Below are positions 6,250 through 54,349 of a DNA stretch of 64,000 bases, piece after piece. The DNA lies in contig CAKPBC010000008.1 of assembly GCA_934140155.1 (NCBI GenBank), positions 1 through 64,000 on the forward strand, given 5' to 3'. Every line of letters begins with the position of its first letter. The stretch's first letter is position 1. This DNA is from an uncultured Bacilli bacterium. Lineage in GTDB: Bacteria > Bacillota_I > Bacilli_A > RFN20 > CAG-826. The notes beneath the pieces are model-generated. The model saw only the letters and a list, made by a program, of their open reading frames with translations, was not told where the DNA came from and did not search any database. The position numbers and the translations under genes are program-made.

Positions 6250-6282
6250 CAAAAAAAATCCCTGATTTTTCATCAGAGATTA
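6250..6282 (-). terminator. Rho-independent terminator after flotillin gene
   Basis: Minus-strand hairpin CUCUGAU-GAAAAA-AUCAGGG followed by U8. Confidence 0.7.
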
Positions 6283-6305
6283 ATTATTTCTAGAAATTAG
6301 TAATA

Positions 6306-7883: not shown

Positions 7884-7980
7884 ATCAATTTAATTACACT
7901 TAAAATATATCATTAAATTATTAATTTTAAAATAAATTTTTCATTCATTATTTATTTGAGTAAATACAGTTTTATAAAAG

Positions 7981-8011
7981 AAAAAAATCCCTGACTATTA
8001 CATCAGAGATT
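7981..8011 (-). terminator. Rho-independent terminator after dfx; near-identical copy of the 6250 terminator
   Basis: AATCTCTGATG-N8-AGGGATTTTTTT on minus strand. Confidence 0.65.
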
Positions 8012-8026
8012 TAAGATATAAATTAA

Positions 8027-8392
8027 TTATTTAATAGCCCAAAGGCCATGTAAATTGCAATAGCTAATTGCGTTAATAACTTCATCGCCATCAACAAGAG
8101 CAAACTCTACAACTGGTTCTTGACCTGGATGTAATTCACGACGTTGATTACCAAATTTGGTTTGTAAGATAATCCAACCAATATAATGATTATCAAGCAT
8201 TGGATGAATTACTTCACCAACACTAACACGTACAAGATTACCAATTCTTGTTACAACTGGAATATGCTTTTCTTTAGCGGCTTCTGTTGTATTAGGTTTA
8301 ATTTCGACAAATCCTTCAACATTAGTTAAATCGATTTCATCATTTGCAACCGCTAAAACTTTGCCACATTTTTTGCATTCAAAGAACTTCAT
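8027..8392 (-). CDS. dfx: Superoxide reductase / desulfoferrodoxin-family protein (start trimmed to internal Met MKFFECKKCG)
   Basis: N-terminal CKKC, EKHIPVV, C-terminal YCNLHGLW hallmark of the SOR iron centre; the listed ORF extends upstream into rbr. Confidence 0.75.
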   Translation of the reverse strand: MKFFECKKCGKVLAVANDEIDLTNVEGFVEIKPNTTEAAKEKHIPVVTRIGNLVRVSVGEVIHPMLDNHYIGWIILQTKFGNQRRELHPGQEPVVEFALVDGDEVINAISYCNLHGLWAIK

Positions 8393-38124: not shown

Positions 38125-39075
38125 TTATTTATTCGAATTTGCAATAATTTTTAAGGCGGCTTCTTTTACTTCTTCTTTAAGCCATTCCGGTTCAAGAACT
38201 TCACAATTACCTCTATAATACAATATAAATCCAATCATACGCGGTTTATAACTCATATCAAGTTCAATAATTGTATATTCTTTAACTGCTTCAACAATTT
38301 TTTGATTTTTGCCATAAACTTGAAGTTTAGCATAAATAGCATCTAATCCATAAAATTTTAATTTGACATGATAATACTGTGTATTGCCTAGCATGCCAAA
38401 TTGATCAAGATAATCATGTTCATTATAATACAAATCTTTTACAAATTTTTTATCTAATACAGTCATTTTAACAATTCTACAAAAATCAAAGAAGCGATAA
38501 TCATGAACTCTTTCACAAAAGCCATGAACAAACCATCTATGATTATACATAAAAATTTTATAAGGAAGAATATTACGTCCGCGCACTTCATTATCACTTG
38601 ATATGTAATCAATATAAACTTTTTTTTGTTCTTTGATAGCTTGTTCAAATTCAACATATATTTTATTAATTGCTTCAACTGACATAAACATGGAAAAGCC
38701 ATCAAGTTGAGTTACTTCATTGTATTGTTGATTTGTTAAGTCAATTCTAGAAAATATTTTTGCCATTCCCTGAATAAATTCTTTTCTTTTTGGGAATGTT
38801 GTTCGATTAGCAATATAAGAATATGCTCCTAAAATACTATCTTTTTCTTCGGGTAGCAATTGGATTGAAGGCAATACATTCTTAGAATCAAGTGTATATC
38901 CTCCATATCTTCCTGGAACAGAATTAATATAAAAACCTGCTTCTTCTAATTCCTTACGATATTCAATAATATTTCTTTCGTTAGTGTCAAGTAAAGCCGC
39001 TAATTCGGAGATTTTATATGGTTTGCCCGAATTAAGAATTTGTAACATTTGAATACACATTGCTGCTTTTCCCAT
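38125..39075 (-). CDS. HTH-WYL-WCX transcriptional regulator (BrxR/CapW/PafBC-like); start trimmed to MGKAAM
   Basis: N-terminal wHTH (ISELAALLDTNERNIIEYRKELEEAGF), central WYL domain, C-terminal WCX; RBS AAGGGG. Confidence 0.65.
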   Translation of the reverse strand: MGKAAMCIQMLQILNSGKPYKISELAALLDTNERNIIEYRKELEEAGFYINSVPGRYGGYTLDSKNVLPSIQLLPEEKDSILGAYSYIANRTTFPKRKEFIQGMAKIFSRIDLTNQQYNEVTQLDGFSMFMSVEAINKIYVEFEQAIKEQKKVYIDYISSDNEVRGRNILPYKIFMYNHRWFVHGFCERVHDYRFFDFCRIVKMTVLDKKFVKDLYYNEHDYLDQFGMLGNTQYYHVKLKFYGLDAIYAKLQVYGKNQKIVEAVKEYTIIELDMSYKPRMIGFILYYRGNCEVLEPEWLKEEVKEAALKIIANSNK

Positions 39076-39089
39076 AAACATACCCCTTG

Positions 39090-39602
39090 TTACTTTAAGA
39101 TAAGAAAAGCAAACATAATGATTACTACAATTAGTAATACTATAATAATGTATTCTTTTATATCTTTTTCTTTTTTGTGACAAGTATTTTGTGGCATTTT
39201 TGTCTCTTCAATGTGGGAAAAACTTTTATTTTGTGGTTGTGTTTCTTCTACAATATTTTTTTCATTATTTTCAATACTTAAAAGATTATCTAAACTATGT
39301 TGAACCTTATCAACCATTTTATTTACTTCATTAATCGCTTCTTCATCAAAATCGCCATAATAATAAGCATCATCATAAACAATATCTTTAATATCATCTA
39401 AAGTATCATTTAATATTTTAAAATCCTCTTCAAAAAGCATTTTATCTTTAACATTTAAGCCATCAAATACTTCTTCCAAATCTTCTAATAGATTTGATAA
39501 TTCTACATACGTTTGTTCATCTAATTTGTTGCTTCTACTTAACAAACTATTAATCGAATGAATATATCTATAAAACTTTTTCTTTTTGTTTGTCATGTCC
39601 AT
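39090..39602 (-). CDS. Acidic coiled-coil protein with C-terminal tail-anchor TM
   Basis: D/E-rich, C-terminal IIIVLLIVVIIMFAFLIL hydrophobic anchor. Confidence 0.45.
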   Translation of the reverse strand: MDMTNKKKKFYRYIHSINSLLSRSNKLDEQTYVELSNLLEDLEEVFDGLNVKDKMLFEEDFKILNDTLDDIKDIVYDDAYYYGDFDEEAINEVNKMVDKVQHSLDNLLSIENNEKNIVEETQPQNKSFSHIEETKMPQNTCHKKEKDIKEYIIIVLLIVVIIMFAFLILK

Positions 39603-40206
39603 ACTTGATTTCATCCTTTGATTTAATATATTCTACGTCATCATTAACATTATTCATCATCATGAGTGGGTATCCAATATTTCTTCCATAACTCGCAGCA
39701 TGGTCTAAACATTTTAAAACCATTTCTCTAGCATCTAAATCCTCGTTTCTTATTTCTTGGTATTTTATAATTAATTGTGTTTTACCAATTCCAATACAAA
39801 CCATTTCACTAGATTCTAGTACTCTTCCATATTCATCTATGAGAAAGAGTTTGGTTAATGTAGTTATAATAATCGTGCATTTAATTTCATATCCATAATC
39901 AAATTCATCATAAGTATCGCTTGATTTTCTACAATTTTTAAAAATTTTCGGAATTACTCTATTTATTAAGTAATTATATGAAATATCTTCTTTACCATCT
40001 AATAAATTAGGAATATTTTTTATTACTTGTCCGCAATTGGCATCTCCTGATGTTGCTATAAAGCAATGTTTGGATCCTAAAATACGCTTGATTTTCCAAC
40101 TTTCTTGGCAATTACATAAATGTTCAATATCAGTCCCAGAAGTTCTTACCCCATCAGCACCAATAAATATTTCGTTATTTTTCTTAATTGCAATTATCGC
40201 TGTCAT
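39568..40206 (-). CDS. HslV-like Ntn-hydrolase proteasome subunit homolog (catalytic Thr1 retained)
   Basis: MTAIIAIKKNNEIFIGADGVRTSG aligns gap-free with HslV residues 1-23 (Thr1, Asp17-Gly18, Thr21, Gly23); KIKRI (Lys33 region); GIGKT (GSGG region). Confidence 0.65.
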   Translation of the reverse strand: MTAIIAIKKNNEIFIGADGVRTSGTDIEHLCNCQESWKIKRILGSKHCFIATSGDANCGQVIKNIPNLLDGKEDISYNYLINRVIPKIFKNCRKSSDTYDEFDYGYEIKCTIIITTLTKLFLIDEYGRVLESSEMVCIGIGKTQLIIKYQEIRNEDLDAREMVLKCLDHAASYGRNIGYPLMMMNNVNDDVEYIKSKDEIKYGHDKQKEKVL

Positions 40207-40224
40207 AAATGTTAGTTCCTTTCA

Positions 40225-40803
40225 TTAAAATAATAAAAGTTTATTAATATAATATTTAATTTTATAATCTTTAGTATTAAGTGTAATAAAGCCAATAATG
40301 TTATTGTCTCCATAAATGACCTTTTTTTGAGTCATTACAGAAAGTAAAAATCTTTCATCATGTACATCGACACTATTTTCTTTTGCTATTAATATATCAA
40401 AATCACTAGCATCAGATACCCCTTTGGTTATTTCCCCCATATATTCAAAATCAACAATTTGATATATTTTTCCTTCTGATATAACAAATAAACTGCAACA
40501 TTTTGGACAAACACTATAATTTGATTTAGCTATTAATTGTTTAGCTTTAGGAATAAAAATATCTCTTAAATATTTAAAATCTATATGTTCGTTTTTATTA
40601 AATAAGTTGGGATTGGCAAATAATATTTGTCCTTGTCTTGCACTGCAACAATTTATAACAATTACCTTGCCATATTTATTATTTAAAATTCGTATTTGAA
40701 GATTATTTTTTTCTTTTAAATCATAACAAAGCGAAGAATAATTTGTTAATTGCTGTGCAATGTATATTGTATCGTTTTCTTTATAAACAATTGCTTCTGT
40801 CAT
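40225..40803 (-). CDS. HslV-like paralog 2 (Thr1 present, Asp17/Gly18 replaced)
   Basis: MTEAIVYKENDTIYIAQQ; shared NPNLF..FIPK block with paralog 1. Confidence 0.5.
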   Translation of the reverse strand: MTEAIVYKENDTIYIAQQLTNYSSLCYDLKEKNNLQIRILNNKYGKVIVINCCSARQGQILFANPNLFNKNEHIDFKYLRDIFIPKAKQLIAKSNYSVCPKCCSLFVISEGKIYQIVDFEYMGEITKGVSDASDFDILIAKENSVDVHDERFLLSVMTQKKVIYGDNNIIGFITLNTKDYKIKYYINKLLLF

Positions 40804-41421
40804 TTAAAGTTCCTCCCAACACGAAGATATTTTTGTTGTTTCTATGCTTCCATCTTCATTAAATATTAGTAATTCATTTGTATTAGATTTATATACAATA
40901 AAAGGATAACTTGATTCAGATAACAAATTATTTGTTTCTTTAAATATCATTTTTAACATATCGATGCCACTTAACTTTTTATCATAGGCTTTTTGAACTT
41001 TAAATATATAATAATTTTCTCCTGAGGCATTAAGCCCCCATACCAAATCAACACAATTAGCACCTATATCATAAATTCTCTTTCCATCCATAATCATCAT
41101 TTCAAATGTTGTATCCACTATGGCACTAGATTCAAATGTGGCTGCATCATTGTTCACTATAAAATCTAGATATTTGGGATAAAATTCCTTAAGCATAAAC
41201 TCTTTTGTTAGTGGACTAGGAAAATTATTAGGATTAATTTCATTAACAAATTTATAAAATAGTTTATATTCACCAACATAAGCAATTACAATATTTTTAA
41301 ATTTTTGTATTTTAGCTTGTCTACTATTAATATCATGTATTTTGCTACTAGATATGATTTTTAATGTATCCGCTACTAAATAACTCTCATTACCACATTT
41401 ATACCCAATTATAAATCCCAT
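40804..41421 (-). CDS. HslV-like paralog 3 (Thr1 replaced by Gly; likely non-catalytic)
   Basis: MGFIIGYKCGNESYLVADT aligns with paralog 1 N-terminus; Asp17 retained. Confidence 0.5.
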   Translation of the reverse strand: MGFIIGYKCGNESYLVADTLKIISSSKIHDINSRQAKIQKFKNIVIAYVGEYKLFYKFVNEINPNNFPSPLTKEFMLKEFYPKYLDFIVNNDAATFESSAIVDTTFEMMIMDGKRIYDIGANCVDLVWGLNASGENYYIFKVQKAYDKKLSGIDMLKMIFKETNNLLSESSYPFIVYKSNTNELLIFNEDGSIETTKISSCWEEL

Positions 41422-42044
41422 ATAAATTCTTCCTTTCTTAGTTTTTTACTATTTCCATCAAAAGAAGTTATATTCCAATAGTCATCATTTGTATTTCCAT
41501 AAAGTTTAAAATCGTTTTCATTTTGTTTATCACAATCATATACTTCGATTAAATTATCTAATGAAATTACAAGTTTATTATTTTTTTTAATGATATTGTT
41601 CATTACGCCTTGAGGTATAAAATCATCATGAAATTCATTGATTTCTGTTATTAGCATATTTCCCTCAATTCGATAGGCATTATTATCGATGATAATAATG
41701 ATTTCTCCATCAAATCCAATTGTATTATATTTTTCATTGTTTCTTAATTGATAAATATTTTTTAAAGATTCAATAATATCAAATTTTAAATTATTGATTA
41801 TAAATGGCAAATCAAATTGTTCAATATTTTGTAATCTCTCTTGAAATAACATTTTTAAATACAATTGAGCACTTTTTTGCATTTCAATAAATAAAATAGT
41901 AATGTTATGGTTAGGATTTTCAATGAATTGAATATCAGCATAATTCGAACCAGCATACTCATTTATTGTTTCAACCATTATTAATCTATGTTTAAAAGCA
42001 AAATCAAAACCTTTTTCGGCTTTTTTTAATAAAAATATATCCAT
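41409..42044 (-). CDS. Hypothetical protein of the HslV-like operon
   Basis: 211 aa, no recognisable motifs. Confidence 0.4.
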   Translation of the reverse strand: MDIFLLKKAEKGFDFAFKHRLIMVETINEYAGSNYADIQFIENPNHNITILFIEMQKSAQLYLKMLFQERLQNIEQFDLPFIINNLKFDIIESLKNIYQLRNNEKYNTIGFDGEIIIIIDNNAYRIEGNMLITEINEFHDDFIPQGVMNNIIKKNNKLVISLDNLIEVYDCDKQNENDFKLYGNTNDDYWNITSFDGNSKKLRKEEFIWDL

Positions 42045-42193
42045 AGTAAAACTCCTTATTGTATAGAATAAAAATTGTTGAATTTCAGTTATATTTAAAT
42101 TTAACGTCCATTCAACAAATTGATATGCATTGCTATTTCACTTATTTTTATAGCAATGCATATTTAGATTATATGTTAACTTTATTTTATCAC

Positions 42194-43483
42194 TTAAATG
42201 TTAACAATTTGTTTTAATTGTTTGATAGTAACAAATTTATTTTTTTCTAATGCCTTTGCCACTAAAGCAATTTCCTCTTTATATTGAGATACAATATTTG
42301 TAGCTTTTTCTTTATATTCTCTTAATTTAATATTTGCTAGTTCTTGCCCACGTTCATTTAATGAACGAGCAACATGGTTCTTTTTAGAATCAACTTGCGA
42401 ATATTCTAATCCAAATGCACCTTTTGCAATGCATAGTTCTAATGCTTTTGTTACTCTATTGATATCGTTAATAGAGTAATTTGATTCTTCTTGGAAGAAT
42501 ATATCTTGAACCGCTAATTCTGCTAAAGAGGCAATCGCATCATTTATCATTTGGCTATAAGTTCTATTTTCAATCACTTTATATGCTTGATCATAAACTC
42601 TATATTTATCAGTGATTTTGTTATATCCTGGGTCATCGGTAACATCAACATATGTATATTCTTTGTTAAGGATGACATTAGTTACTGTTTTAGCCGCAAG
42701 AGCATATATTGCTTTTTTGTTATCTAAGACATAATCAATGTAATCATATCCGAACAATGTTTTTTCAACATTTTTTATGATAATATCATCAGTTAATGTT
42801 TTATTAGATTTTCTAGCATCTTCAATTGATTTATTAATAATTTCTATTATTTCTAGGCTAGATGCTCCACATATTCTTTTAATAATAGTTTCAATGTCTA
42901 CATCTTTATCATTAATATCTTTTAAACAATTTTCAATGAGAAGTCTTCTTTCATCATTATCTGGTGATAATAATGTTACTCTTCTTATTAAATATTGCTC
43001 TTCTAAAGTTAATGGCAAATCAAATAATGGTAATCTAGTGGTGATAATAGCAAATACATTAGTAGTTGTTTTTAACTTTTCAACTAATTGATTTAGCATA
43101 TCTTTTTTTACATTACGATTAGTTTTAAGTTCTTCAAAGCTATCAAGTAATAATACTACAGTTTTAGTATGATCTAATGATTCTAAGATAGACTTAAACT
43201 TTGTACTAGGATCTTCGCTATCAATTAATTCTTTGCAATTAATTTCTTTTGAAGCAACTCCACTATTTTCAATGATTGCTTTAGCTATAGTTGTTTTGCC
43301 GTTTGCGGCTTCACTTTCAATAGCGAATGCTTTTGGTAATTCTTTGAGTTCTTTTTGATATTCTTCATAATTTTTAAGAAGATTGATAATTTTAATTGCT
43401 TCTTCTTTTGCTGCGTTATATCCGATAATTTTATTTAATGATTTATATTCGTTTGTGTTAGTCATAGTTTTAATTTCCTCCAC
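42194..43483 (-). CDS. FtsH-like AAA+ protein lacking TM segments, with degenerate Walker B and inactivated M41 zinc site
   Basis: AKEEAIKIINLLKN..ANGKTTIAKAI vs FtsH AKEEL..GPPGTGKTLLAKA; LLLDSFEE instead of hhhhDE; AIITTRLPLFDLP (sensor 1/SRH); YALAAKT in place of HEAGH. Confidence 0.6.
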   Translation of the reverse strand: MEEIKTMTNTNEYKSLNKIIGYNAAKEEAIKIINLLKNYEEYQKELKELPKAFAIESEAANGKTTIAKAIIENSGVASKEINCKELIDSEDPSTKFKSILESLDHTKTVVLLLDSFEELKTNRNVKKDMLNQLVEKLKTTTNVFAIITTRLPLFDLPLTLEEQYLIRRVTLLSPDNDERRLLIENCLKDINDKDVDIETIIKRICGASSLEIIEIINKSIEDARKSNKTLTDDIIIKNVEKTLFGYDYIDYVLDNKKAIYALAAKTVTNVILNKEYTYVDVTDDPGYNKITDKYRVYDQAYKVIENRTYSQMINDAIASLAELAVQDIFFQEESNYSINDINRVTKALELCIAKGAFGLEYSQVDSKKNHVARSLNERGQELANIKLREYKEKATNIVSQYKEEIALVAKALEKNKFVTIKQLKQIVNI

Positions 43484-43632: not shown

Positions 43633-43872
43633 TTAGTTATCTTGCCATAGGCATCTAAATGCCTTGAGGACAAAATATAGACCAGACTTTCTAAAGAAGA
43701 TGTCATGAAATACTCCACCGCATCCGCTTCTTCTCATCGTTCTATAATTTATAGCGAAGATAAGTAATCCAACTATACACATAAGCCAAGCAAGTGCGAA
43801 GCAAATAACGAACGCTACCACTAAGAACAAGCTTGCAATTACTCTAGGGACAAATAATAATGCTTTTTTCAT
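43633..43872 (-). CDS. Small membrane protein (79 aa)
   Basis: Two hydrophobic helices, C-terminal Cys/Arg-rich tail. Confidence 0.4.
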   Translation of the reverse strand: MKKALLFVPRVIASLFLVVAFVICFALAWLMCIVGLLIFAINYRTMRRSGCGGVFHDIFFRKSGLYFVLKAFRCLWQDN

Positions 43873-43907: not shown

Positions 43908-45176
43908 TTAATTAATTTTAATAAATTCTTTAAATTGCTCTGCAGTTATGAATTTCTTTGTTGTTAATTTTTTGGCAATTAATTCGATTTCGTGTCGATA
44001 TTTAATTACAATTTTAGTTGCTTTATCTTTATATTCGATTAATTTGTTATTTAACAACTCTTTACCATGCTTATTTAAAGAAGTATTTACTCCGTGTCCT
44101 TCATAGTCTGGTTGAGTGTAACCTAACCCAAGGGCACCATTTTTAATATATTTCTCTAATAATAAATAAGCTTGGAATGTGTCATTCGAAGAATAATTAG
44201 ATCCTTCTAGGAAGAATACTTCTTCTGATGCTAAACCTGATAATTCAATAATTATTTCATTTAATTTTTCGTTAACAGATTTATTATCATCAATTGATAT
44301 TTCATCATAGTAGTTATCTAAATGAGTAAGTACTTCATAATCATCAATATCTGATATATCAATGTAATCATATTCTTTATTTAAAACAAGATTAGTTACT
44401 GCTTTAGCAGCAAGGCGATATGCTGTTTTTTTGTTAGAAACGATATGCTCATGATAATCATAGCCCATTAATAATTTACCAGCATTTTTTACAATGATAT
44501 CATCAGTTAATGGTTTATTTAATAATTTAGCATCTACAATTGATCTATTAAGAACTTGAATTGTTTTTAAGTTTGATGCACCATTTGTTCTTTTAATGAT
44601 TGTTTGAACATCAACATTTTTGTTTTTAACATCTTTCAAACACTCTTCAATTAAGAGTGCTTTATCTTCTTTGTTTAATGATGGCATTGTTAATTTTTTA
44701 ATCCAAGAACGATCTATAGATGGTAACAACATCCAATTAATAAGCATTTCTGAAGCAATAATGACAAATAAGTAAGGATTGCTTTTTAACTTTGTTAATA
44801 ACATATCCATTATTTGTCTTCCCTCATTGGAAGTAAAATCTATTTCTTCAAAGTTATCAAGGAAGAATATAGTTGTTTTTGAATCTCTTACCTTATTCAA
44901 TAACATTTTTACTTCCTCAATTGCACCAACTTTTATTAGCAATTTGCAATCAACTTCTATTGAATTAACTTGATTACTTTCAATAATTATATGAGCTAAA
45001 GTTGTTTTTCCATTACTTCTATCGCCTTCAATTACCAACATTCTAGGTTGACACTTTGATGTTGTTTGATTTTCTTCAAGGTTTTGAAGAAGATCAATAA
45101 TTTTTTCTGCTTCTTTTTTAACTTCGTTACATCCAATAAGTTTATTTAATTTTGTATATTTGTTTGTGTTAGTCAT
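43908..45176 (-). CDS. FtsH-like AAA+ paralog 2 (GDRSNGKTT Walker A, FLDNFEE Walker B-like, no HEXXH)
   Basis: Paralogous to 42194..43483 over its full length. Confidence 0.6.
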   Translation of the reverse strand: MTNTNKYTKLNKLIGCNEVKKEAEKIIDLLQNLEENQTTSKCQPRMLVIEGDRSNGKTTLAHIIIESNQVNSIEVDCKLLIKVGAIEEVKMLLNKVRDSKTTIFFLDNFEEIDFTSNEGRQIMDMLLTKLKSNPYLFVIIASEMLINWMLLPSIDRSWIKKLTMPSLNKEDKALLIEECLKDVKNKNVDVQTIIKRTNGASNLKTIQVLNRSIVDAKLLNKPLTDDIIVKNAGKLLMGYDYHEHIVSNKKTAYRLAAKAVTNLVLNKEYDYIDISDIDDYEVLTHLDNYYDEISIDDNKSVNEKLNEIIIELSGLASEEVFFLEGSNYSSNDTFQAYLLLEKYIKNGALGLGYTQPDYEGHGVNTSLNKHGKELLNNKLIEYKDKATKIVIKYRHEIELIAKKLTTKKFITAEQFKEFIKIN

Positions 45177-45899: not shown

Positions 45900-46328
45900 T
45901 TATATTAATATACTAGTCTCAATACTATTTCCGTTTAGAAGATTTAACCTAATGTCTTTATCACATTCTTCACACATAGCGTCATATCTTAGCCTTTGCC
46001 ATGTGTTCTTTTTTTTGTATTTAAGATTATTACGTGTTTCCCAGAATATTTCATCTTCCATATCACATAAGCGATTTTGTTCTTGAATAGAATGAACCTT
46101 GAAGTATGGATCATTATTCATTTCTTTAATTTCTAAATAATATTCTTCAACTGTAATTCTTTCAACGTATCTAATTGCGTCTTTATGGTGATGTTTTACT
46201 CTTGGAAATGCTCTTGCTAGTTTAGCGGCTTCTTCGCCATCTTCCGCTCGAAGGAATAACCATTTAAGGACATATCTGTTTTTTCCTACATGTCCACATT
46301 TAGCAAGTACTTTATAAAAATTATTCAT
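45900..46328 (-). CDS. Hypothetical protein (142 aa)
   Basis: ORF with RBS; no family recognised. Confidence 0.4.
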   Translation of the reverse strand: MNNFYKVLAKCGHVGKNRYVLKWLFLRAEDGEEAAKLARAFPRVKHHHKDAIRYVERITVEEYYLEIKEMNNDPYFKVHSIQEQNRLCDMEDEIFWETRNNLKYKKKNTWQRLRYDAMCEECDKDIRLNLLNGNSIETSILI

Positions 46329-46582: not shown

Positions 46583-47650
46583 TTAATCACCTGACTTAAA
46601 GTTAAATCTATTATAATTTTCGATAATTTTCGAGCAAATGATTGACGAAGAAAAATTAGAAAGGGCAAACACTTGTTTACTTAGTAGTAAATCATAATCT
46701 GTTATTGAATCAATAATGTCATCTATATTAGTTTCAGAATAATTGTATAATAATGGCATATCAATTTCTTTTAATAACTTATTAGCATCTGAAATAACAA
46801 TAGTGCCCTCCATAATTGAATAGCTTACCCTATCATGAATGCAGTAATCAAAATTAGGATTGCAATTCAAGATATACTTATATTTTTTAGATGTTGATAT
46901 TATTTTGTTGTAATTAAGCGGATTAATAAAAACAACATTTTTTGAAAAAATCAAATTATCTGGATTGTTTGAAGCAATTATTACCATATGCTTTTTTATA
47001 GAAGAAATTGATTTTAATCTTTTTTGTATTCTAATATATCCGTTAACTATTTCGAAAAATTCTTTTTCATTAATAATTTGATGTGTTTCTCTATAATTGC
47101 AATAAAATTCTCCAAAACTTGAATCAAAATCATATTTATCTAAAAAATCAAGTATTAACTCTTTTTCTTTGCTTTTATCTATTAAATTTTCAAAAAAACT
47201 TTTACTTTTTATTTTTATTGGCGCAAATATGGCATCTATTTTATTTTGACATCTTCTTGTTTGAGTTTTAAAAGGAATTGGCAAGGTCAAATAATCACTT
47301 CTATTATTTTGAATAAACAATTTAAAACTATTATCTATAAATATCATACGATTATATTTTGAATAATAATCACAGTTATCGTATCTTAATGGATTATCAA
47401 TTATCCACTGATAATTAATAACTTCGTATAAGTCATATAATGGTTTTTGATCTTTATAAAAATGATATTGCCCAATATTTAATGTAAAATTTATGCGTTT
47501 ATTAGTCAGACAATAAATTGCTTCATCAATAGTATTAGCAATAAAAATATGTATATGATTATTAATAAACATATCAATAATAACTTTATAAAATTCATCA
47601 AAAGAGTTATATACTCCTTTATAGTTATCTTTTAAAATTAAAACATTCAA
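46583..47650 (-). CDS. Hypothetical protein, possibly degenerate GT-B glycosyltransferase-like
   Basis: C-terminal HDRVSYSIMEGTIVISD resembles GT4 E-x7-E region. Confidence 0.3.
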   Translation of the reverse strand: MNVLILKDNYKGVYNSFDEFYKVIIDMFINNHIHIFIANTIDEAIYCLTNKRINFTLNIGQYHFYKDQKPLYDLYEVINYQWIIDNPLRYDNCDYYSKYNRMIFIDNSFKLFIQNNRSDYLTLPIPFKTQTRRCQNKIDAIFAPIKIKSKSFFENLIDKSKEKELILDFLDKYDFDSSFGEFYCNYRETHQIINEKEFFEIVNGYIRIQKRLKSISSIKKHMVIIASNNPDNLIFSKNVVFINPLNYNKIISTSKKYKYILNCNPNFDYCIHDRVSYSIMEGTIVISDANKLLKEIDMPLLYNYSETNIDDIIDSITDYDLLLSKQVFALSNFSSSIICSKIIENYNRFNFKSGD

Positions 47651-47683
47651 TGTACATTTCTCCTAATTCATAAAATCTTTATA

Positions 47684-48544
47684 TTAATAATTCTTAGTCC
47701 ATTCATCTTTTTGCTTTTTGGAAACACTCCATTTTGTTCTAGGATTATTCTTTTCATTTATATGGCAATACTTACAAAATTTATTAGGTGTCCTTAAAAA
47801 ATCTAATATCTCTTTACTTGAATGTTCATATATATCTATACCTGTATTAGTAGTATCATATTTTTCATTAAAATATTCATTAAATAAAGGAATATATGCG
47901 GCATGTGGGCAAAAATATAACATTCCATCACGCAAATTGCAACAATTATTAGCATACTTACATTCTAAAAAAGTTTTTTTGTAATCTAATAAATCCATTT
48001 TACTCAACCCCATATTTTTCCAAACATTATTAGTGGTTCTAACATTAAATGTTTCAATCATTACTTGTTTACTTTTTACAAAACGATATAATTCTTCATA
48101 ATCAATACCTATTGGATATGTAGAAACACATATTTCCACATTATTTTTCTTACATGCATCAAAGAATTTTTCGGGCATGCTTTTAATTAAAATTCCATTT
48201 GTAATTAATTGAAGTTTCGCATTCGGCAAGCAGCATCTAGAAATATCTAAATATTTAATAATATTGGGATTAGTTAATGGTTCACCGCCCATAATATGTA
48301 ACTGTTTGCAATTTTCTCCAAATAGTTCATAAATTCTTTTCAAATCTTGTTCATATTTATCTAATTCATAAATAGAATTTTTTTTAGCCAATGGTGAAAA
48401 ATGGTCACATCCACTGCAATTCAGATTACATGAATCAATAACATGAACTTCAAACCAAAATGGAATTCTTTTGGATTTTTTTCCTATTATTTTATATTTT
48501 ATTATTTCCATTTGCTTTGATATTTCACTTCTTTTTTTTATCAT
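47684..48544 (-). CDS. Radical SAM enzyme with C-terminal auxiliary Cys cluster
   Basis: CNLNCSGC (CX3CX2C), GGEPL, C-terminal CX5CC..C and CKYC. Confidence 0.65.
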   Translation of the reverse strand: MIKKRSEISKQMEIIKYKIIGKKSKRIPFWFEVHVIDSCNLNCSGCDHFSPLAKKNSIYELDKYEQDLKRIYELFGENCKQLHIMGGEPLTNPNIIKYLDISRCCLPNAKLQLITNGILIKSMPEKFFDACKKNNVEICVSTYPIGIDYEELYRFVKSKQVMIETFNVRTTNNVWKNMGLSKMDLLDYKKTFLECKYANNCCNLRDGMLYFCPHAAYIPLFNEYFNEKYDTTNTGIDIYEHSSKEILDFLRTPNKFCKYCHINEKNNPRTKWSVSKKQKDEWTKNY

Positions 48545-48550
48545 AAATAT

Positions 48551-49831
48551 TTACCTCCTTTTTATCGCCTTTATAACAAAGGAAGTGGGATACTTTTCCT
48601 CATGATATCTAAGTTCATCAAATAAACTTATATTAAATTTTGTTAATAAACTTGAAAAAATATCTTTCAACATATATTCTCTATATAAACATTTAGGATA
48701 CTTTTCACTTCTTTCAAAATTATAAGGCATATATCCGTAAAATGGCGAAGAATAAAAATAATCATCATTAATTTGAACAGCCAAAGATTTATTATCTACT
48801 AATTTTAAAAAAGGGTGAAAATCATGCAAAATATATACACCATTGTCTTTTAATAGCGATGCCACATTTTCCATGAAAATATTGATATCTAAAAAATAAT
48901 GTAAAACACCAACTGTAGAAATTACCATATCAAACTTATTTCCACAAGTTTCAATTTTTTTAGACAAATCAACATTTATATATTCTAATTTTTGTTGCAA
49001 ACAATCGGCACATTCACTTGCATATTTTTTTCCAGAAGTAGAATAATCGAAAACAGTAACGTGAGCACCATTTAAAACCAAAGAATTGGCTAATCTGCCA
49101 CAGGAATCACATACACAAGCAATTTTTTTTCCTTTTATATCTCCAATATATGGATAATATTTTTGAAAAATATTGTCTTTACCATTATATAAATTTCTTG
49201 CCATTACATCAGGTGTTCCATATCTTTTTAACCAATAATCATAAGTTTTAAAATCCCATGCTATTCTATTATTTGATGAAAATTCTTTTTCTCCCAAAAT
49301 TGATACAATTTCGTATAAAGGATCTCTACTGCATCCAACAATATTAAGCTCTTTTTCAATGATGTGTTTTAATTTTTGAATTTCCTTTACTTGATATAAA
49401 GCAATATCTTCTATGGAAAAATCATAAACACTTTTTAATCCATTTGTATCAAGCATTCGTTCATATATTTTACGCGGATTTGTTTTCAAATAAAAATATA
49501 CATCACCAATTTTATGATAAGAATCAGGTCTAAAATCAAGAAGAGTTTTATCTTTTAATAAATAACCAGCATGATAATCTAAAAAAACATATCTATATTT
49601 AGAATTATATTTTAAAATTTGTTGAAGAGATAATTCATATAGTTTATTTTGCTGATTCAATGTTAATGAACCATTATCTGCTTTTCCAAATAATTTAATA
49701 GATAATTCATCTTGTATTTTATTCCTTTTTATATGCACAGCATCGTTACCATAATAATTTAAAAGACGTTTTATTAAAGTTGTTTTTCCACTTCTTTGAA
49801 CTCCATATATAAGAACTATCATTTTATTCAT
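48551..49831 (-). CDS. P-loop kinase-like domain fused to class I SAM-dependent methyltransferase
   Basis: GVQRSGKTTL Walker A; C-terminal MTase motifs (ACVCDSCGRLA, DMVISTVGVLHYF). Confidence 0.5.
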   Translation of the reverse strand: MNKMIVLIYGVQRSGKTTLIKRLLNYYGNDAVHIKRNKIQDELSIKLFGKADNGSLTLNQQNKLYELSLQQILKYNSKYRYVFLDYHAGYLLKDKTLLDFRPDSYHKIGDVYFYLKTNPRKIYERMLDTNGLKSVYDFSIEDIALYQVKEIQKLKHIIEKELNIVGCSRDPLYEIVSILGEKEFSSNNRIAWDFKTYDYWLKRYGTPDVMARNLYNGKDNIFQKYYPYIGDIKGKKIACVCDSCGRLANSLVLNGAHVTVFDYSTSGKKYASECADCLQQKLEYINVDLSKKIETCGNKFDMVISTVGVLHYFLDINIFMENVASLLKDNGVYILHDFHPFLKLVDNKSLAVQINDDYFYSSPFYGYMPYNFERSEKYPKCLYREYMLKDIFSSLLTKFNISLFDELRYHEEKYPTSFVIKAIKRR

Positions 49832-51233
49832 CTCCTGATATATTAGTTATTATTTTTTGAATATCTTCATTGCTAAATCCAAGATTTATCAGATAAGTAT
49901 TAACATCATGATATGTATATCTAAAACATTCTAAAAAGCAAGAAAACTTTTTTTTGGCATCGTGGTACTTTGTATTATGTTCATATTCTCCTCTTTGATT
50001 TTGATATATTTCATCGGTCAATAAATATTCGCAAATGATTTCTTCATCTGAAGAGCCTAATAACATTTCACATAGCATAGCAACGATTCCTGTTCTATCC
50101 TTACCAATCATACAATTAATTAAAATTTTATTACTAGATTCTTTTATATAGTTAAATATATTACGAAACGCCTCTTTTTGAGCCAATAAATACAAATAAT
50201 ATTCATTTAAATTTTTTACAAATTGAATATTATCTTCTTTCTTTTTTTTATTTGCATGAAAAATCGTTATATTTATCCAGTTAAAATTATCAATTAAAAA
50301 GAATGGCTTTTCTTTATCTTTAAAATTTCTTAAATCAATAATAGTAGTTACATTCATGTTTTTTAGAGTATCAATGTCTTCACTATTAAAAGGAATATAA
50401 TCACTTCTAATTAAGTTTGTATTAAAAGTGTTTGCTTTTACAAATCTAGTATTATTTGTAGATTTTAGCAATGATTCAAAACATACAACTCTACCATTTG
50501 TATTAAAATAATTTTCAAATGTATAATAATTCTTACTAAAAAAGAATCGTAAAACTTTTATATTTTGGTTTGGGTTGTCTAAATATAAAATTGCAGCTCT
50601 ATGTGTGCCATCTCTTATAATATTGTCATTATTATAGACAATTATATATTGATTATTCTCGCCATATTTTAATTTTTTAAATGAATCAAGAATTTCATTG
50701 AATCTTTCCTTATGACTTTGATTATGCAAGTTAGTCAATGTTTTTATTTCAAGATTTTCTTTGTTAGTTAAAAAGCATAAATGTTCACTTTCAGATACGT
50801 GCTTTATAGATTTATCTATAGAGAAAATAAGTAAATCTTTTAAAGAAATTACTTCTTCTTTTACATAGAGTAAATATGGTAAATCTATAGCAAGCATATA
50901 TCCCATATATACACCATCTAAAGCATTATAATCCAATCCTGAAACTGGATAATTATTCCTTAAATCACACTTGGTTATTACAAAAAGACTATTAAATTCA
51001 GTTAAATTTAGCAAATAATCTCTATTTTTTAAAATTATCCTAATTTTGTCATTTGAAACATATGCATTTAAGAAAGAATAACTAGCAGAAGAAATAAAAA
51101 AAGCTTTTTTTGTTTTTTTTAAGAACCAGTAAATTTCTTTTTCTAAGCGATACAAAAAAGAAACAAATATTAAATATTCAATTTCATTCATTACTATATC
51201 ATCTTGTTTTATTCGTACTTTAAATTTTTTCAT
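49824..51233 (-). CDS. Two-domain protein with C-terminal Y_phosphatase3-type tyrosine phosphatase domain
   Basis: CMIGKDRTG (CX5R) and TTIIDLRN motif; N-terminal 300 aa unassigned. Confidence 0.5.
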   Translation of the reverse strand: MKKFKVRIKQDDIVMNEIEYLIFVSFLYRLEKEIYWFLKKTKKAFFISSASYSFLNAYVSNDKIRIILKNRDYLLNLTEFNSLFVITKCDLRNNYPVSGLDYNALDGVYMGYMLAIDLPYLLYVKEEVISLKDLLIFSIDKSIKHVSESEHLCFLTNKENLEIKTLTNLHNQSHKERFNEILDSFKKLKYGENNQYIIVYNNDNIIRDGTHRAAILYLDNPNQNIKVLRFFFSKNYYTFENYFNTNGRVVCFESLLKSTNNTRFVKANTFNTNLIRSDYIPFNSEDIDTLKNMNVTTIIDLRNFKDKEKPFFLIDNFNWINITIFHANKKKKEDNIQFVKNLNEYYLYLLAQKEAFRNIFNYIKESSNKILINCMIGKDRTGIVAMLCEMLLGSSDEEIICEYLLTDEIYQNQRGEYEHNTKYHDAKKKFSCFLECFRYTYHDVNTYLINLGFSNEDIQKIITNISGDE

Positions 51234-52191
51234 AAGGATTTTTAGTTGCCTTCCCTATTTTGCTAAAATCTATGTACTTCGCCATATCTAAATTAGATTC
51301 ATAAGGATTCAATATTGCAATTCCGCTAGCAGAAGAAAATGTTAATTCGCCAAAATATATTTTTTCGCCAACGGCATACAAATCCACTCTAACAAAATCA
51401 AAATACAAAGAAAGTTCAGATGTGATTTTTTGCATTTTATCTAACACATTAACATCTAACTTCATATCAATCATTTTATACTCAGGACACTGGAAATATG
51501 TCATTTCATAATTTTTATTAAAAATCGTACGTTTATGATTATTAAATCTATTAGTGTCAACGGAAAAATACTTCATATCACCATTAAAACAAAAAAATTT
51601 ATAATCTGGCAAATCATTTGAATTGGCTAAATATTGTGTAATAAAAATACATGGTTTTATATTTTTGTATTGCATTTCGTATCCATGGCAATAAGCATAA
51701 TTAATCTGCAATTCTTTATTTAGTTTCTTTTGAAGCTTAAAAAAACCTTTTTTCCCTAATTTGTCTTTACTACGAACAATATGAGTCATATGTGCTCCAT
51801 GATTGCATTGAATGACAAAACTATTAGGTAATTCTTCAAAATTAATTTCCATAGCATTATAAAAATATTCTTTTCCATTATTTTTAATAATTGGTATCAA
51901 AAAATCTTCACCTATTGTGTTTTTTATGAAACTTCTAACTAAATATTTATCTGTGCAATATGTTTTTATATAATTGTCATTTTGAAGTTTTAAAACTTGC
52001 TGCTTTTCTGTAAATGTTTTAGGATTATCTAAGTCTAACTTTAATCCTGTTTTTTTATAGTACCAACATTTTAAGTACTCTTCTTTTTTATTTGTTCTTT
52101 CAAACTTTAATTCACGTCTTATTTCTTTTTTCCAAATTTCAATATAAAAAATATTTTCTTTAAGCCATTTAATTAATTTCATTGTTATCAA
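51220..52191 (-). CDS. ATP-grasp amidoligase, TupA-like family
   Basis: DLPDYKFFCFNG and RVDLY..GELTFS signatures. Confidence 0.5.
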   Translation of the reverse strand: MITMKLIKWLKENIFYIEIWKKEIRRELKFERTNKKEEYLKCWYYKKTGLKLDLDNPKTFTEKQQVLKLQNDNYIKTYCTDKYLVRSFIKNTIGEDFLIPIIKNNGKEYFYNAMEINFEELPNSFVIQCNHGAHMTHIVRSKDKLGKKGFFKLQKKLNKELQINYAYCHGYEMQYKNIKPCIFITQYLANSNDLPDYKFFCFNGDMKYFSVDTNRFNNHKRTIFNKNYEMTYFQCPEYKMIDMKLDVNVLDKMQKITSELSLYFDFVRVDLYAVGEKIYFGELTFSSASGIAILNPYESNLDMAKYIDFSKIGKATKNPYEKI

Positions 52192-53587
52192 TTCCTAAAA
52201 TCGCATCCGCAAGTTTATTCTGTTCTAATTTATACGATACTTTATGTAAAATACTTTTTAATGCAGAAGAACATTTGCAATAATATACAGGCTCACGCAA
52301 CTTTATAATTTCATAAAAAAAGTCATCAATTGTATTTAGGTACTTAACTCCAATGTTGTTGCCAACAATGGTATGTATAACTGTTAGTTTATTATTTATT
52401 AAAGTTGGAAGTCCAGCACTTATGCCTTCAAATATCCCACGGCCAAAAGTTTCCCAATTTGATGTTGAAATATTAATATCACATAATTCTAATAAAGAGG
52501 CTAACTCTTCTTGTAATATAGATATATGGAATATAATGTATTTATCTAAATTATTAATTAATATATAATGTAGCATTTCATCATATATCTCTTTTTCTTG
52601 AATAGTGGTCACTAAATGTAATTTTACTCTTATTCCATTTTTTATTAATTTGTTCAATAATTCAAGTTGCATTATATTGTTTTTTTGTTTTTTTATAGAA
52701 CCTATACAAATTAGATTTATTTCATCTCCACATGATTTTCTGATTCTAAAATGTATATGCGTGTCAATTCCTCTATATATAACATTGATTTTATCTTCAG
52801 ATATTAGATATTCACTTATTAAATCTTGTTTTTCTTCTATTGATGGAGTAATAATTTTATTCACAGATTGTAATACATTACATTCCTGCTTTGAATATTC
52901 TATGGGTACAAATTCTCCAGCACGTTGATATGAATGAGTACAAAACATTGGAAATAATATGGTTTTTTTCCAAAACGATTCTCCAAAATCGCATCCAAAG
53001 AATTTACTTACATGCGCAGTTACAACTTTATCATATTTTTCAAAATCTTTTAAAGCTTCAATGTTTGTATCTAGATTTTTTAGTCGCCTTATAAATTTAT
53101 TATTAAGAGCATCCTTATACCTATAATAAAAAACATTTTTAATATAGTTATTAACATATATTTCATTGTTTTTTCTTATAAAAGCAACATCCAATTTACA
53201 TCTTTTTTTTAATGTGTCTATTAGTTGTTTGGCTAAAATGCTACCACCATCTATATCCTTTCCATATCCGGGAAATTTTCCCAAATAAAGTAAAACTTTC
53301 ATATCCGATCTTAAGAAATCATTATATGCTTTATTCAATGCACAAACAAATGGATGATGGCCTCCAATAAATTCTATGCACTCATTAATGTATTTAATCT
53401 CGTCACATAAAATATATTGTAAATTATAATCCGTATTTTGTATTTTATGTCCAATATACACTGAAAAGTCTTCTTTTTTCACTTTCCCATTAATAGAAAA
53501 ATCTTTCAACTTAGTAAATCTATTAACTAACTTTTCATCTTGAAAAAATTTTTTATAGCAATAATTATCTAAAATCAATTTTTTCAT
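52169..53587 (-). CDS. Glycosyltransferase family 4-like (C-terminal GT-B domain) with N-terminal extension
   Basis: ETFGRGIFEGISAGLPTL (E-x7-E). Confidence 0.55.
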   Translation of the reverse strand: MKKLILDNYCYKKFFQDEKLVNRFTKLKDFSINGKVKKEDFSVYIGHKIQNTDYNLQYILCDEIKYINECIEFIGGHHPFVCALNKAYNDFLRSDMKVLLYLGKFPGYGKDIDGGSILAKQLIDTLKKRCKLDVAFIRKNNEIYVNNYIKNVFYYRYKDALNNKFIRRLKNLDTNIEALKDFEKYDKVVTAHVSKFFGCDFGESFWKKTILFPMFCTHSYQRAGEFVPIEYSKQECNVLQSVNKIITPSIEEKQDLISEYLISEDKINVIYRGIDTHIHFRIRKSCGDEINLICIGSIKKQKNNIMQLELLNKLIKNGIRVKLHLVTTIQEKEIYDEMLHYILINNLDKYIIFHISILQEELASLLELCDINISTSNWETFGRGIFEGISAGLPTLINNKLTVIHTIVGNNIGVKYLNTIDDFFYEIIKLREPVYYCKCSSALKSILHKVSYKLEQNKLADAILGIDNNEIN

Positions 53588-53812
53588 AAATTACACTCCG
53601 CCTTAAATACATTTTAATTAACTCTAAAACAACTTATAATCTTCCTTCATTATTTTGAAAAAAATACTCTTCAATTTAATACACTTAATAAAACGAAATA
53701 AATAATTATAGTTTTAGTTCTTTGTTTTTTATTTAATTAATCTAATAATCTAAATTTTTATAATTAATGTTAGCAACAACAATTAAAACATAATCAAATT
53801 GAGTTTGTTTGA

Positions 53813-54349
53813 TTACGTTAAATTCATTATTTTTTGCACTTGATTGGTTTTTAGATAAATTTGTCTATCAAAATCAAAATTATTCTTTTCAATTGGAATA
53901 CCTAGAACACTTTCTAACAATTTGTATTTAGTATCTATGGTATAAGAAAATAATTTTAAATACTCAGAAAACATGTCGATCATTAGTATATTAGAATTTT
54001 TCAAACTCGACAATAAGCACCTTTGATTTGAAAATAAAACTGTTTTTTTCGCGTGACATGCTAAATAAGTAAACAAATAAAAATTCTCATCTACAATTGC
54101 ATAGTGCTCATGTAAATCAATATTTTTTAATTTTGAAATTACTTTTTGGTTCATTTTTTCTCGAATGTTTTTTGGAAAGCCAGACACAAAAACCACTTTT
54201 TTTAAACTATTGTACATTTTTTTGGCAACATATGTTTTCCCAATACATGGTTTTCCAACTACAATGATGCTATTCGAATTAGACTTCATTATCGTTTGTA
54301 AAATTCCGGTTTCATATTCATTTATTTTCTTTAACAAATTTATATCCAT
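53813..54349 (-). CDS. Small P-loop NTPase
   Basis: VVGKPCIGKT Walker A. Confidence 0.4.
   Translation of the reverse strand: MDINLLKKINEYETGILQTIMKSNSNSIIVVGKPCIGKTYVAKKMYNSLKKVVFVSGFPKNIREKMNQKVISKLKNIDLHEHYAIVDENFYLFTYLACHAKKTVLFSNQRCLLSSLKNSNILMIDMFSEYLKLFSYTIDTKYKLLESVLGIPIEKNNFDFDRQIYLKTNQVQKIMNLT

Follow-up and report, generated by a model that had tools for sequence, protein, structure and literature searches.

A cassette of four proteasome-fold paralogs, one with a complete predicted catalytic set, in an accessory block of an uncultured Bacilli bacterium

The locus

The window, i.e., the whole stretch of 64,000 nucleotides from an uncultured Bacilli bacterium that was analysed here, carries on its minus strand a cassette of four tandem proteasome-fold paralogs in the order O4-P3-P2-P1. 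Three of them had been described in an initial annotation as its tandem paralogs 3, 2 and 1, and they are indeed adjacent minus-strand reading frames: P3 (40804–41421; 205 aa, starting with MG, MGFII...), P2 (40225–40803; 192 aa, starting with MT, MTEAI...) and P1 (39568–40206; 212 aa, MTAII...). A fourth paralog, O4 (41409–42044; 211 aa, starting with MD), had been missed. Every cassette gene is preceded by a ribosome binding site, and the junctions from O4 to P1 consist of a 13-nt overlap, an abutting stop and start (the P3 stop is directly followed by the P2 ATG) and an 18-nt gap; the four genes are tightly translationally coupled. No minus-strand terminators were found within the operon, and a scan for promoters was of no help in DNA so rich in AT (73 sites vs 66.5 expected). 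The spacer upstream of O4 contains a perfect inverted repeat with 14-bp arms, ATATGCATTGCTAT-N13-ATAGCAATGCATAT (42123–42163, no strand assigned), which may be a hairpin or an operator. Among the related loci, which we refer to by number, the arms are kept in L001 and L019 although the loop differs, and the outer ATATGCAT/ATGCATAT is retained in L005 and L006, in both of which the AAA and WYL genes described below are missing.

Beyond this spacer lie two minus-strand genes for AAA proteins, AAA-B (42194–43465; 423 aa) and its paralog AAA-A (43908–45176; 44% identity). AAA-B is a soluble FtsH-like/IetA-like protein (Pfam AAA, E = 7e-10; PADLOC IetA, E = 7e-6) with an intact Walker A motif. As judged by alignment to FtsH 7zbh and to the canonical AAA protein of L009, it is devoid of the pore loop, the Walker B Glu (DS), the Arg finger and the M41 motif HEXXH, which is replaced by AIYALAAK; AAA-A is degenerate in the same manner (FLDNFEE; TAYRLAAK in place of HEXXH). 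Neither protein qualifies as FtsH, since they score 41.5 and 40.2 bits with TIGR01241 (cut-off 600), have no N-terminal transmembrane segment and, besides the deleted pore loop and the replaced HEXXH, show DS or DN for DE and EEQY for RPGR. The NCBIfam models for IetA/IteA give 24–29 bits against a cut-off of 510. The loss of the pore loop, Walker B Glu and Arg finger makes an HslU-like unfoldase role unlikely, and we rejected it on these motifs. Furthermore, the cassettes of L007 and L010 are without any ATPase gene, which means that partnership with AAA proteins is not obligatory.

The remaining neighbors are likewise encoded on the minus strand. TM79 (43633–43872; 79 aa) lies between the AAA genes, has two hydrophobic segments in a hydropathy scan and is present in L001–L004. 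T174 (39090–39614; 174 aa, 170 aa in orthologs), whose start overlaps the end of P1, is a helical protein with a C-terminal transmembrane segment by hydropathy; it is conserved in L001–L004 and L019 and absent from L005, L007 and L010. An HTH-WYL-WCX regulator (38125–39060; 311 aa from the ATG used by its orthologs) matches Pfam WYL (E = 1e-12), WCX and HTH_11 as well as PADLOC WYL (E = 1e-29), and is 98% identical to the L001 copy.

Fold and homology of the four paralogs

The four paralogs are all homologous and proteasome-folded (Ntn, T1-type). Profile-profile probabilities among them range from 95.5 to 98.9%, with hhalign linking P3 to P1 over the full length (98.9%, E = 2.8e-17) and P2 to P1 (97.8%, E = 1e-12). 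With single sequences, BLASTP found a significant match for P1 and P2 alone (E = 1e-6) and none for P1-P3, P2-P3 or P1-O4; hence, profiles are required to link the paralogs. The profile HMM relationships suggest two pairs, a beta-like one of P3 and P1 and a fully non-catalytic one of O4 and P2. AlphaFold (AF2) models were obtained for P1 (pLDDT 94.3, pTM 0.90) and O4 (pLDDT 83.5), and structure searches with both gave matches confined to proteasome, BPH, HslV and Anbu folds, which bears out the Ntn fold that the initial annotation had proposed to check in this way. For P1, Foldseek retrieved BPH (5ovs, E = 5e-11) and also 20S beta subunits and HslV. The fold is the alpha-beta-beta-alpha one of proteasome subunits (PF00227 superfamily).

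As a lone sequence, P1 is only weakly similar to known proteins. It reaches E = 4e-4 and 20.4 bits with Pfam PF00227, under the gathering cut-off of 22.4, and E values of 0.056–1.6 against HslV sequences in the PDB. The significance of the similarity derives from the family level, where relatives, an ortholog and the structure predictions agree: the P1 ortholog of L007 (43% identity) passes the PF00227 gathering score with 24.7 bits, and 74 of 117 relatives match PF00227 at E ≤ 1e-3 (best E = 3.8e-19). P2, P3 and O4 have no Pfam match. Searches of the four genes against PADLOC, NCBIfam and PHROGs yielded nothing significant; PADLOC gave no match for any of them, and there were weak HslV-type matches for P1 (NCBIfam) and for P3 (PHROG 1040, "peptidase HslV family", E = 0.0065). 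A hit of O4 to the NCBIfam "MAG6450 family" (E = 0.01, 16 bits vs a cut-off of 40) was disregarded.

Catalytic residues

The N-terminus of P1 aligns to HslV without gaps over residues 1–27, including T1, D17, G18, T21 and G23, as had been noticed from the sequence for positions 1–23. The Lys33 and GSGG-like regions noted there correspond to K38 (counting Met) and to a loop that reads GIG instead of the GSG of HslV. P1 is the sole paralog that keeps Thr1, Asp17, Lys33, Gly47 and the Gly128-x-Gly130 loop, and the corresponding T2, D18, K38, G54, G139 and G141 (again counting Met) are invariant across 19 orthologs. Judged by its sequence, P1 alone would carry the N-terminal nucleophile of the superfamily (Thr1 or Ser1; Thr1 in P1) along with Asp17, Lys33 and Gly47; Thr1 is predicted to be exposed by removal of Met. 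Its equivalent of Ser129 is Ile in the window and varies across orthologs, so that the catalytic chemistry may differ from that of canonical proteasomes. G23 varies even among orthologs that are 80–94% identical.

P3 does start with MG and hence lacks Thr1, as had been claimed. It nevertheless retains Asp17 (D18), Gly47 (G50), Gly128 (G134) and an invariant K40, which is probably the Lys33 equivalent, with a two-residue ambiguity in the alignment. In O4 and P2, the Thr1, Lys33 and Gly47 equivalents are gone, and the whole catalytic set is lost. P2 does have Thr after Met in the window, but this residue is A, A, G, Y, S or I in orthologs and thus not conserved, and the reported "QQ" in place of D17 and G18 was off by one: in a profile alignment, Asp17 is replaced by Gln (Q18), Gly18 by L19, Lys33 by Gln and Gly47 by Cys. 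The notion of a graded loss over three HslV-like paralogs therefore holds in that the catalytic apparatus is unequally retained, but the series has four members, and a better description is that of a complete subunit (P1), a second that, by sequence, is short of the nucleophile only (P3) and two fully degenerate ones (P2 and O4).

A 20S-like alpha/beta organisation with alpha-type N-terminal extensions (H0) is not supported, as O4 and P2 have no additional N-terminal helix. They either align to P1 from residue 1 or show no such helix, and the O4 model opens with strands E3–8 and E13–19, as does that of P1.

Conservation and strain variation

The order O4-P3-P2-P1 is kept in L001–L006, L007 (43% identity), L010, L013/14 and L016–18 (~26% identity), and L019. 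In a leave-clade-out HMM test, genes 1–4 of L016 were assigned to O4, P3, P2 and P1, respectively (E = 2e-12, 5e-19, 1.5e-13 and 2e-46). The four-way split and the gene order are older than lineages that share ~26% identity. The dN/dS values of all four genes lie between 0.15 and 0.34 (P3, 0.15–0.24; P2, 0.25–0.30). Purifying selection acts on all four, the inactive copies included, and together with the deep conservation this led us to reject pseudogene decay.

At the same time, the cassette is accessory and varies from strain to strain, and strains of the same species are hyper-diverged in this block. Nucleotide identity among such strains is 75–89% exactly over 42045–39646 as opposed to 97–99% in the flanks, and the rpsD protein is 100% identical between the same strains whose cassettes diverge. 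Exact matches to the rpsD protein were found on 243 contigs and those to P1 on 3, which identifies the cassette as accessory. In one species, it is joined to alternative partner modules. A tblastn search with P1 against phage and plasmid collections gave no match, a scan of IMG/VR gave one distant single-gene relative (L020), and a metagenome scan with a narrow alignment gave 3 loci.

These observations bear on the designation as HslV. One could suppose that ordinary housekeeping HslV (ClpQ) genes were duplicated and that the extra copies are decaying; the N-terminal similarity to HslV, and the label "HslVU peptidase subunit" that JGI gave to some relatives, would fit this. However, P1 scores 18.8 and 19.5 bits with the HslV equivalog models TIGR03692 and NF003964 (cut-offs 157.75 and 137) and matches over residues 1–43 only, hslU is absent, the neighboring ATPases being FtsH/IetA-like classic-clade AAA proteins, and the predicted fold is equally close to BPH and 20S beta subunits. 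The accessory nature of the genes, purifying selection on all four and orthologous sets conserved down to 26% identity contradict it as well, so that we regard it as highly improbable. The paralogs belong to a divergent Bacilli/Firmicute family of proteasome homologs and are not HslV orthologs.

Putative conflict-island context in relatives

In L009, a single Ser1 homolog is paired with a strongly IetA-like AAA protein (PADLOC, E = 2.8e-37). Next to the pair is an MBL protein, in which the MBL-fold domain at the N-terminus matches the PADLOC models LmuA, Avs1a and RTasMBL. Neighbors at other loci comprise RelB-FtsK-gamma, which lies immediately upstream of the L007 cassette, PLD-helicase-DUF3427, HipA, a TIR protein, a polymorphic toxin and AAA_21, and FtsX-like permeases accompany the cassette in L005 and L013. 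Two singletons (P0022 and P0094) lie in mobile-element or phage-like regions and have no AAA gene, which means that the link to AAA proteins is not universal in the wider family. Literature searches on proteasome-like or HslV genes in phage defence brought up no account of such a system.

The toxin-antitoxin-like settings, with RelB-FtsK-gamma upstream in L007, HipA nearby and the analogy to IetAS, invite the explanation that the enzyme is a P1 homo-oligomer of the HslV or BPH kind and that the degenerate paralogs are stoichiometric inhibitors, caps or assembly chaperones, i.e., "antitoxins" that silence the protease until a trigger arrives. P1 being the sole conserved catalytic copy is in keeping with this, and the strong allelic co-divergence suits an inhibitor and its enzyme as well as it suits co-assembling subunits. 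However, it is not parsimonious that three different inhibitor paralogs should have persisted in fixed order over the same evolutionary time as the enzyme, and the Asp17, Lys, Gly47 and Gly128 kept by P3 suggest that an active-site-like pocket is still formed within a shared assembly. We therefore consider this explanation rather unlikely.

A different possibility is that the product is a specific processing enzyme rather than a general protease, namely a ligase/transpeptidase (cf. connectase) or an amidohydrolase with a defined substrate, which might mature or activate a neighboring protein that acts on membranes (MACPF, for instance, or the small TM proteins). The proteasome-like family (PMC8665760) is structurally diverse and counts the ligase connectase among its members, MACPF and MBL-fold genes adjoin the Ntn genes in three lineages at ~33% identity, and membrane proteins stand beside the cassette (TM79 and T174 in the window, the FtsX-like permeases in L005 and L013). 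On the other hand, the window has no MACPF or MBL gene, L007 and L010 are without MACPF, MBL or ABC genes, and the P1 model lacks the connectase-like S3–S4 insertion, all of which leaves this possibility with a small probability.

Discussion

On balance, we lean towards the view that the products of the cassette form an obligate hetero-oligomeric protease in which a single type of subunit is catalytic and which would be the effector module in a conflict island of accessory nature; its assembly, stoichiometry and function are what we infer from the genes. The gene order fixed down to 26% identity, the translational coupling, the purifying selection on inactive copies and the co-divergence of the block suggest a mixed active/inactive hetero-oligomer as the most economical reading. 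The four products would join in one protease whose active sites come from P1 only, with the pseudo-subunits O4, P2 and P3 forming a scaffold or a substrate chamber, and the complex may act as the proteolytic effector ("toxin") of a conflict- or defence-type island. The lack of PADLOC matches for all four genes speaks against such a role. In the window, it would be controlled by the WYL repressor and by two ATP-binding FtsH/IetA-like proteins that are probably non-hydrolysing and non-translocating. By analogy with IetA-IetS, AAA-A and AAA-B might be regulators or antitoxins, not unfoldases.

That Firmicutes possess divergent proteasome homologs is known from the literature: in 2021, Fuchs, Alva and Lupas reported 22 new proteasome-like subfamilies, among them the Firmicute clusters FC1–FC5 (representatives WP_075525441.1, WP_000217171.1, WP_098409529.1, WP_076223917.1 and WP_106036939.1; PMC8665760). 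Compared by description, these clusters resemble P1 and its 138 representative relatives in being divergent Firmicute proteins of ~190–210 aa with Thr1 or Ser1, Asp17, Lys33 and Gly47 and no propeptide. However, that paper gives no informative genomic context, AAA+ partner, tandem paralogs or inactive subunits (PMC8665760), whereas the paralogs here form a four-gene cassette of fixed order, in which one member is catalytic by sequence, and have defined partner modules.

The similarities to HslV lie in the proteasome beta-like fold, Thr1 right after Met, ~27 residues aligned without gaps, and Asp17 and Lys33. HslV, however, is a single-gene homo-dodecamer of two hexameric rings that works with HslU; here, three out of four paralogs are inactive by sequence, the genes are accessory, and HslU is missing. 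BPH and Anbu also differ in being single-gene homo-oligomers of active subunits, with identities of only 12–19%. It can further be noted that four subunit types are not easily fitted onto rings of 6-fold (HslV) or 7-fold (BPH, 20S) symmetry, which speaks against a hetero-oligomer.

With the eukaryotic 20S beta ring (active beta1, 2 and 5; inactive beta3, 4, 6 and 7), the cassette shares catalytic and dead paralogs, separate genes and selection on the dead copies. It differs in being an independent bacterial radiation with four instead of seven paralogs, one active type, no alpha-type extension and no propeptides. The 20S proteasome of Rhodococcus erythropolis is likewise a bacterial complex of the proteasome family that is built from the products of four paralogous genes (two alpha, two beta; PMC13022661), as the complex proposed here would be. 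It is, however, actinobacterial, has true alpha and beta subunits with alpha extensions, its beta subunits are both active and carry propeptides, and its unfoldase is Mpa/ARC.

IetAS is reported to combine a protease toxin with an ATPase antitoxin (PMC13069673). The resemblance lies in an AAA ATPase gene beside a protease gene in accessory islands, the L009 AAA protein being strongly and those of the window weakly IetA-like. In contrast, IetS is a subtilisin-type serine protease, whereas the proteins here are Ntn-type without an S8 protease gene, and the AAA proteins of the window are FtsH-shaped with a dead M41 domain, catalytically degenerate and duplicated.

More tentatively, it is conceivable that a heteromeric proteasome-like particle has evolved independently in bacteria, with O4 and P2 as non-catalytic subunits and P3 and P1 as an inactive/active beta-like pair. 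It might be a fast-diversifying effector of immunity or antagonism whose control module is exchangeable even within a species, degenerate FtsH/IetA-like AAA proteins and WYL in one case and an FtsX-type ABC system in the other.

The known bacterial relatives of the proteasome, i.e., HslV, BPH and Anbu, are homo-oligomers in which the subunits are active. Rings that combine active subunits with dead ones kept by selection are viewed as an elaboration of eukaryotes. If our reading is true, the cassette would thus provide a simple, genetically tractable model for the origin of pseudo-subunits in self-compartmentalising proteases. The locus and its relatives furthermore supply contexts that are absent from the survey of homologs, namely IetA-like/FtsH-like AAA, WYL, RelB, ABC and MACPF/MBL neighbors. 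Taken together with the strong intraspecific diversification, these contexts suggest that the locus functions in the defence against phages or in antagonism between bacteria, and they make this function directly testable.

Results

The initial annotation had described three tandem HslV-like paralogs, here named P1, P2 and P3; the observation is real, but there are four genes and they are not HslV. On the minus strand of the window (G+C ~27%), four ORFs of ~200 aa, O4 (41409-42044), P3 (40804-41421), P2 (40225-40803) and P1 (39568-40206), form a cassette in which each gene has its own Shine-Dalgarno sequence, O4 and P3 overlap by 13 nt, the ATG of P2 directly abuts the stop codon of P3, and a gap of 18 nt separates P2 from P1. 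They are part of a tightly packed minus-strand string that runs from an AAA gene, AAA-A (43908-45176), via a 79-aa protein with two TM segments (43633-43872) and a second AAA gene, AAA-B (42194-43465), to the cassette, and from there via a 174-aa tail-anchored protein (39090-39614) to an HTH-WYL-WCX regulator (WYL; 38125-39060), with rpsD as the next gene on the opposite strand. Between AAA-B and O4 lies a perfect 14-bp inverted repeat, ATATGCATTGCTAT-N13-ATAGCAATGCATAT (42123-42163), whose arms are kept in the related loci L001 and L019, although the loop differs, and whose outer 8 bp are retained in L005/L006; in those two loci, the region homologous to the window starts just upstream of the repeat. 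A 142-aa ORF without family match upstream of AAA-A (45900-46328; 96% aa identity in L019, present in L001) may be part of the module. The tyrS-rpsD island in which this string lies also holds a minus-strand cluster (46583-55487) of two radical SAM enzymes, a methyltransferase, a Y_phosphatase3, a TupA-like ATP-grasp protein and a GT4 glycosyltransferase, which is missing from the corresponding island of L005.

From its single sequence, P1 resembles HslV marginally, with a match to Pfam Proteasome under the gathering score (E 4e-4) and E-values of 0.056-1.6 against HslV in the PDB. A reading as housekeeping HslV was rejected, since P1 reaches 19 bits with NCBIfam HslV versus cut-offs of 137-158. 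At the family level, the likeness is solid. An exhaustive profile search gave 138 representative P1 relatives of 180-215 aa; PF00227 is matched by 74 of the 117 that were aligned (best E 3.8e-19), and the 43%-identical ortholog of a horse-gut Bacilli MAG (L007) passes the Pfam threshold. The AlphaFold2 model of P1 (pLDDT 94.3, pTM 0.90) finds BPH (5ovs; E 5e-11, TM 0.72/0.81), 20S beta subunits and HslV as structural matches. The gap-free alignment to HslV claimed earlier is borne out over the first 27 residues, with T1, D17, G18, T21 and G23 present; among 19 orthologs, T1 and D17 are invariant, but G23 is variable. P1 begins with MT and carries a complete catalytic set: T2 (Thr1), D18 (Asp17), K38 (Lys33), G54 (Gly47) and, in the Gly128 loop, G139 and G141 are invariant in these orthologs, while the Ser129 equivalent differs among them and is Ile in the window.

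By BLASTP with single sequences, P1-P2 is the only significant pair (E 1e-6), and P3 has no significant match. Family profiles built from the orthologous genes of related loci and compared by hhalign connect P3 with P1 over the full length (98.9%, E 2.8e-17), P2 with P1 (97.8%, E 1e-12), O4 with P2 (96.9%, E 1.6e-10), O4 with P1 (95.5%, E 1.4e-8) and P3 with P2 (79%, E 1.5e-5); the comparison of O4 with P3 was not significant. The "graded loss" of catalytic residues previously seen in three genes holds as a loss, but it concerns four paralogs, one complete, one nucleophile-less and two fully degenerate. P3 indeed starts with MG in the window and lacks the Thr1 nucleophile only; its orthologs carry P, or S in one clade, and it retains D18, G50, G134 and an invariant lysine, K40, which hhalign puts two residues off K38 of P1. 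P2 has lost all catalytic positions (Asp17 to Gln, Lys33 to Gln, Gly47 to Cys), and the Thr after its Met, noted earlier as kept, is incidental; the orthologs have A, A, G, Y, S and I there. All are lost in O4 as well, which starts with MD (Lys33 to Asp, Gly47 to Glu). In one distant clade (L013/L016), MS or MT is found at the N-terminus of all four products, which is consistent with descent of the cassette genes from active ancestors. Two further proteins, P0039 (336 aa) and P0075 (311 aa; L012 274-1209), are single ORFs with a full P2-like and then a partial P1-like domain, the Thr of the latter being internal (…PTKTACMIIAK…); they may be natural P2-P1 fusions, or else genes that are degenerate or were misassembled on short contigs.

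The order O4-P3-P2-P1 is common to the conspecific human-gut contigs L001-L006 and L019, and is also found in the horse-gut MAG, in L010, and in L013/14 and L016-18 (~26% identity). When the models were tested with a clade left out, the successive genes of the most distant cassette matched the models for O4, P3, P2 and P1 (E 2e-12, 5e-19, 1.5e-13 and 2e-46), so the four-way split is ancient. Between strains, dN/dS is 0.15-0.34 in all four genes; the inactive copies are therefore maintained, and a reading as pseudogenes was rejected. On the short contig L011 (1-434), P3, upstream of P2-P1, is cut down to its C-terminal part, such that the cassette seems partly degraded in some genomes; the sequence beside the shortened P3 resembles a tRNA gene, judged by eye from the translation, and a protein-kinase-like gene follows P1.

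In the host, an uncultured Erysipelotrichaceae species, the cargo of the island between tyrS and rpsD differs from strain to strain. Exact matches to the rpsD protein occur on 243 contigs and exact matches to P1 on 3. Between strains, the rpsD protein is 100% identical (dS 0.03-0.04), AAA-B and WYL are 98% identical, and the four cassette proteins are 61-83% identical (dS 0.39-0.79). Nucleotide identity to L001 is 75-89% exactly across 42045-39646, versus 97-99% in the flanks. Against L001, L005 and L019, the cassette stands out as a sharp divergence island (39646-42045; cassette dS versus 0.03-0.15), and at least three cassette alleles occupy the same rpsD-adjacent site among conspecific strains.

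AAA-A and AAA-B (44% identical) are built like the cytosolic portion of FtsH, with an AAA module joined to an M41-like domain, but without its membrane anchor, pore-1 loop, Walker B glutamate (DS/DN), arginine finger and HEXXH zinc site. They probably bind nucleotide, and substrate unfolding or translocation is unlikely. Weak matches link them to IetA/IteA anti-phage ATPase models. They form a soluble "pseudo-FtsH" pair (94-98% aa identity between strains).

The partners of the cassette vary. The conspecific L005 has neither the AAA genes nor the tail-anchored protein nor WYL, and its cassette is preceded, in place of the AAA/WYL module, by two FtsX-like permeases with an ABC ATPase (4944-7829); the same trio, 29% identical, precedes the distant cassette of L013 (1971-4851). 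In L007, a RelB-antitoxin and FtsK-gamma winged-helix fusion gene (7798-8181) stops 3 nt short of the first cassette gene, amid helicase genes and a PLD-helicase (DEAD)-DUF3427 gene, and in L010 the cassette is alone. In L009, a more distant Ser1 homolog is paired, as a two-gene unit, with a canonical AAA that closely resembles IetA (PADLOC E 2.8e-37). MACPF and MBL-fold genes, absent from the window, lie immediately upstream of proteasome-like genes in L009 (382-7507), L016-18 (L016 2-5574; L017 299-7509) and L019 (1-4832); between these three lineages, the upstream genes are ~33-35% identical in pairwise comparison. This set comprises a MACPF protein (658-1303 aa), a small protein and a third protein (765-811 aa), whose N-terminal MBL-fold domain matches the PADLOC models LmuA, Avs1a and RTasMBL. 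Other singletons of the wider family have no accompanying AAA gene and are found in mobile-element or phage-like surroundings.

Discussion

O4, P3, P2 and P1 are ancient, co-inherited, translationally coupled and selectively maintained proteasome-fold paralogs, and their cassette is a hyper-variable accessory module of conflict-type islands. The survey of Fuchs, Alva and Lupas (2021) introduced 22 new proteasome-like subfamilies, among them the Firmicute clusters FC1-FC5 (PMC8665760), whose general description P1 and its relatives fit. Its authors state that they found neither an informative genomic context nor a co-occurring AAA+ partner (PMC8665760). Tandem paralogs and inactive subunits are unmentioned there, whereas this locus has tandem paralogs of which one keeps the full catalytic set. 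A 2026 review regards bacterial proteasomes as homomeric, with the exception of Rhodococcus, which has two genes each for the alpha and the beta subunit (PMC13022661). Literature searches on phage defence turned up nothing comparable that involves proteasome-like or HslV components.

Among the four paralogs, P1 is the only type with a complete catalytic set. The main rival to a mixed assembly is a P1 homo-oligomer, on which the pseudo-subunits would act as inhibitors or chaperones. Less likely, the product could be a specific processing enzyme or a ligase, like connectase within this superfamily, and might act on neighbouring membrane-acting proteins. We favor a putative hetero-oligomer, for which the initial annotation had suggested a ring, in which the four products would co-assemble into one protease with active sites from P1. 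Such a protease could serve as effector in a system of the defence or toxin-antitoxin-like kind. WYL and the degenerate AAA proteins may be its regulators; the analogy is IetAS, whose toxin is a protease and whose antitoxin is an ATPase (PMC13069673). The locus is a variant within the proteasome homologs, and it is more interesting than an HslV duplication.
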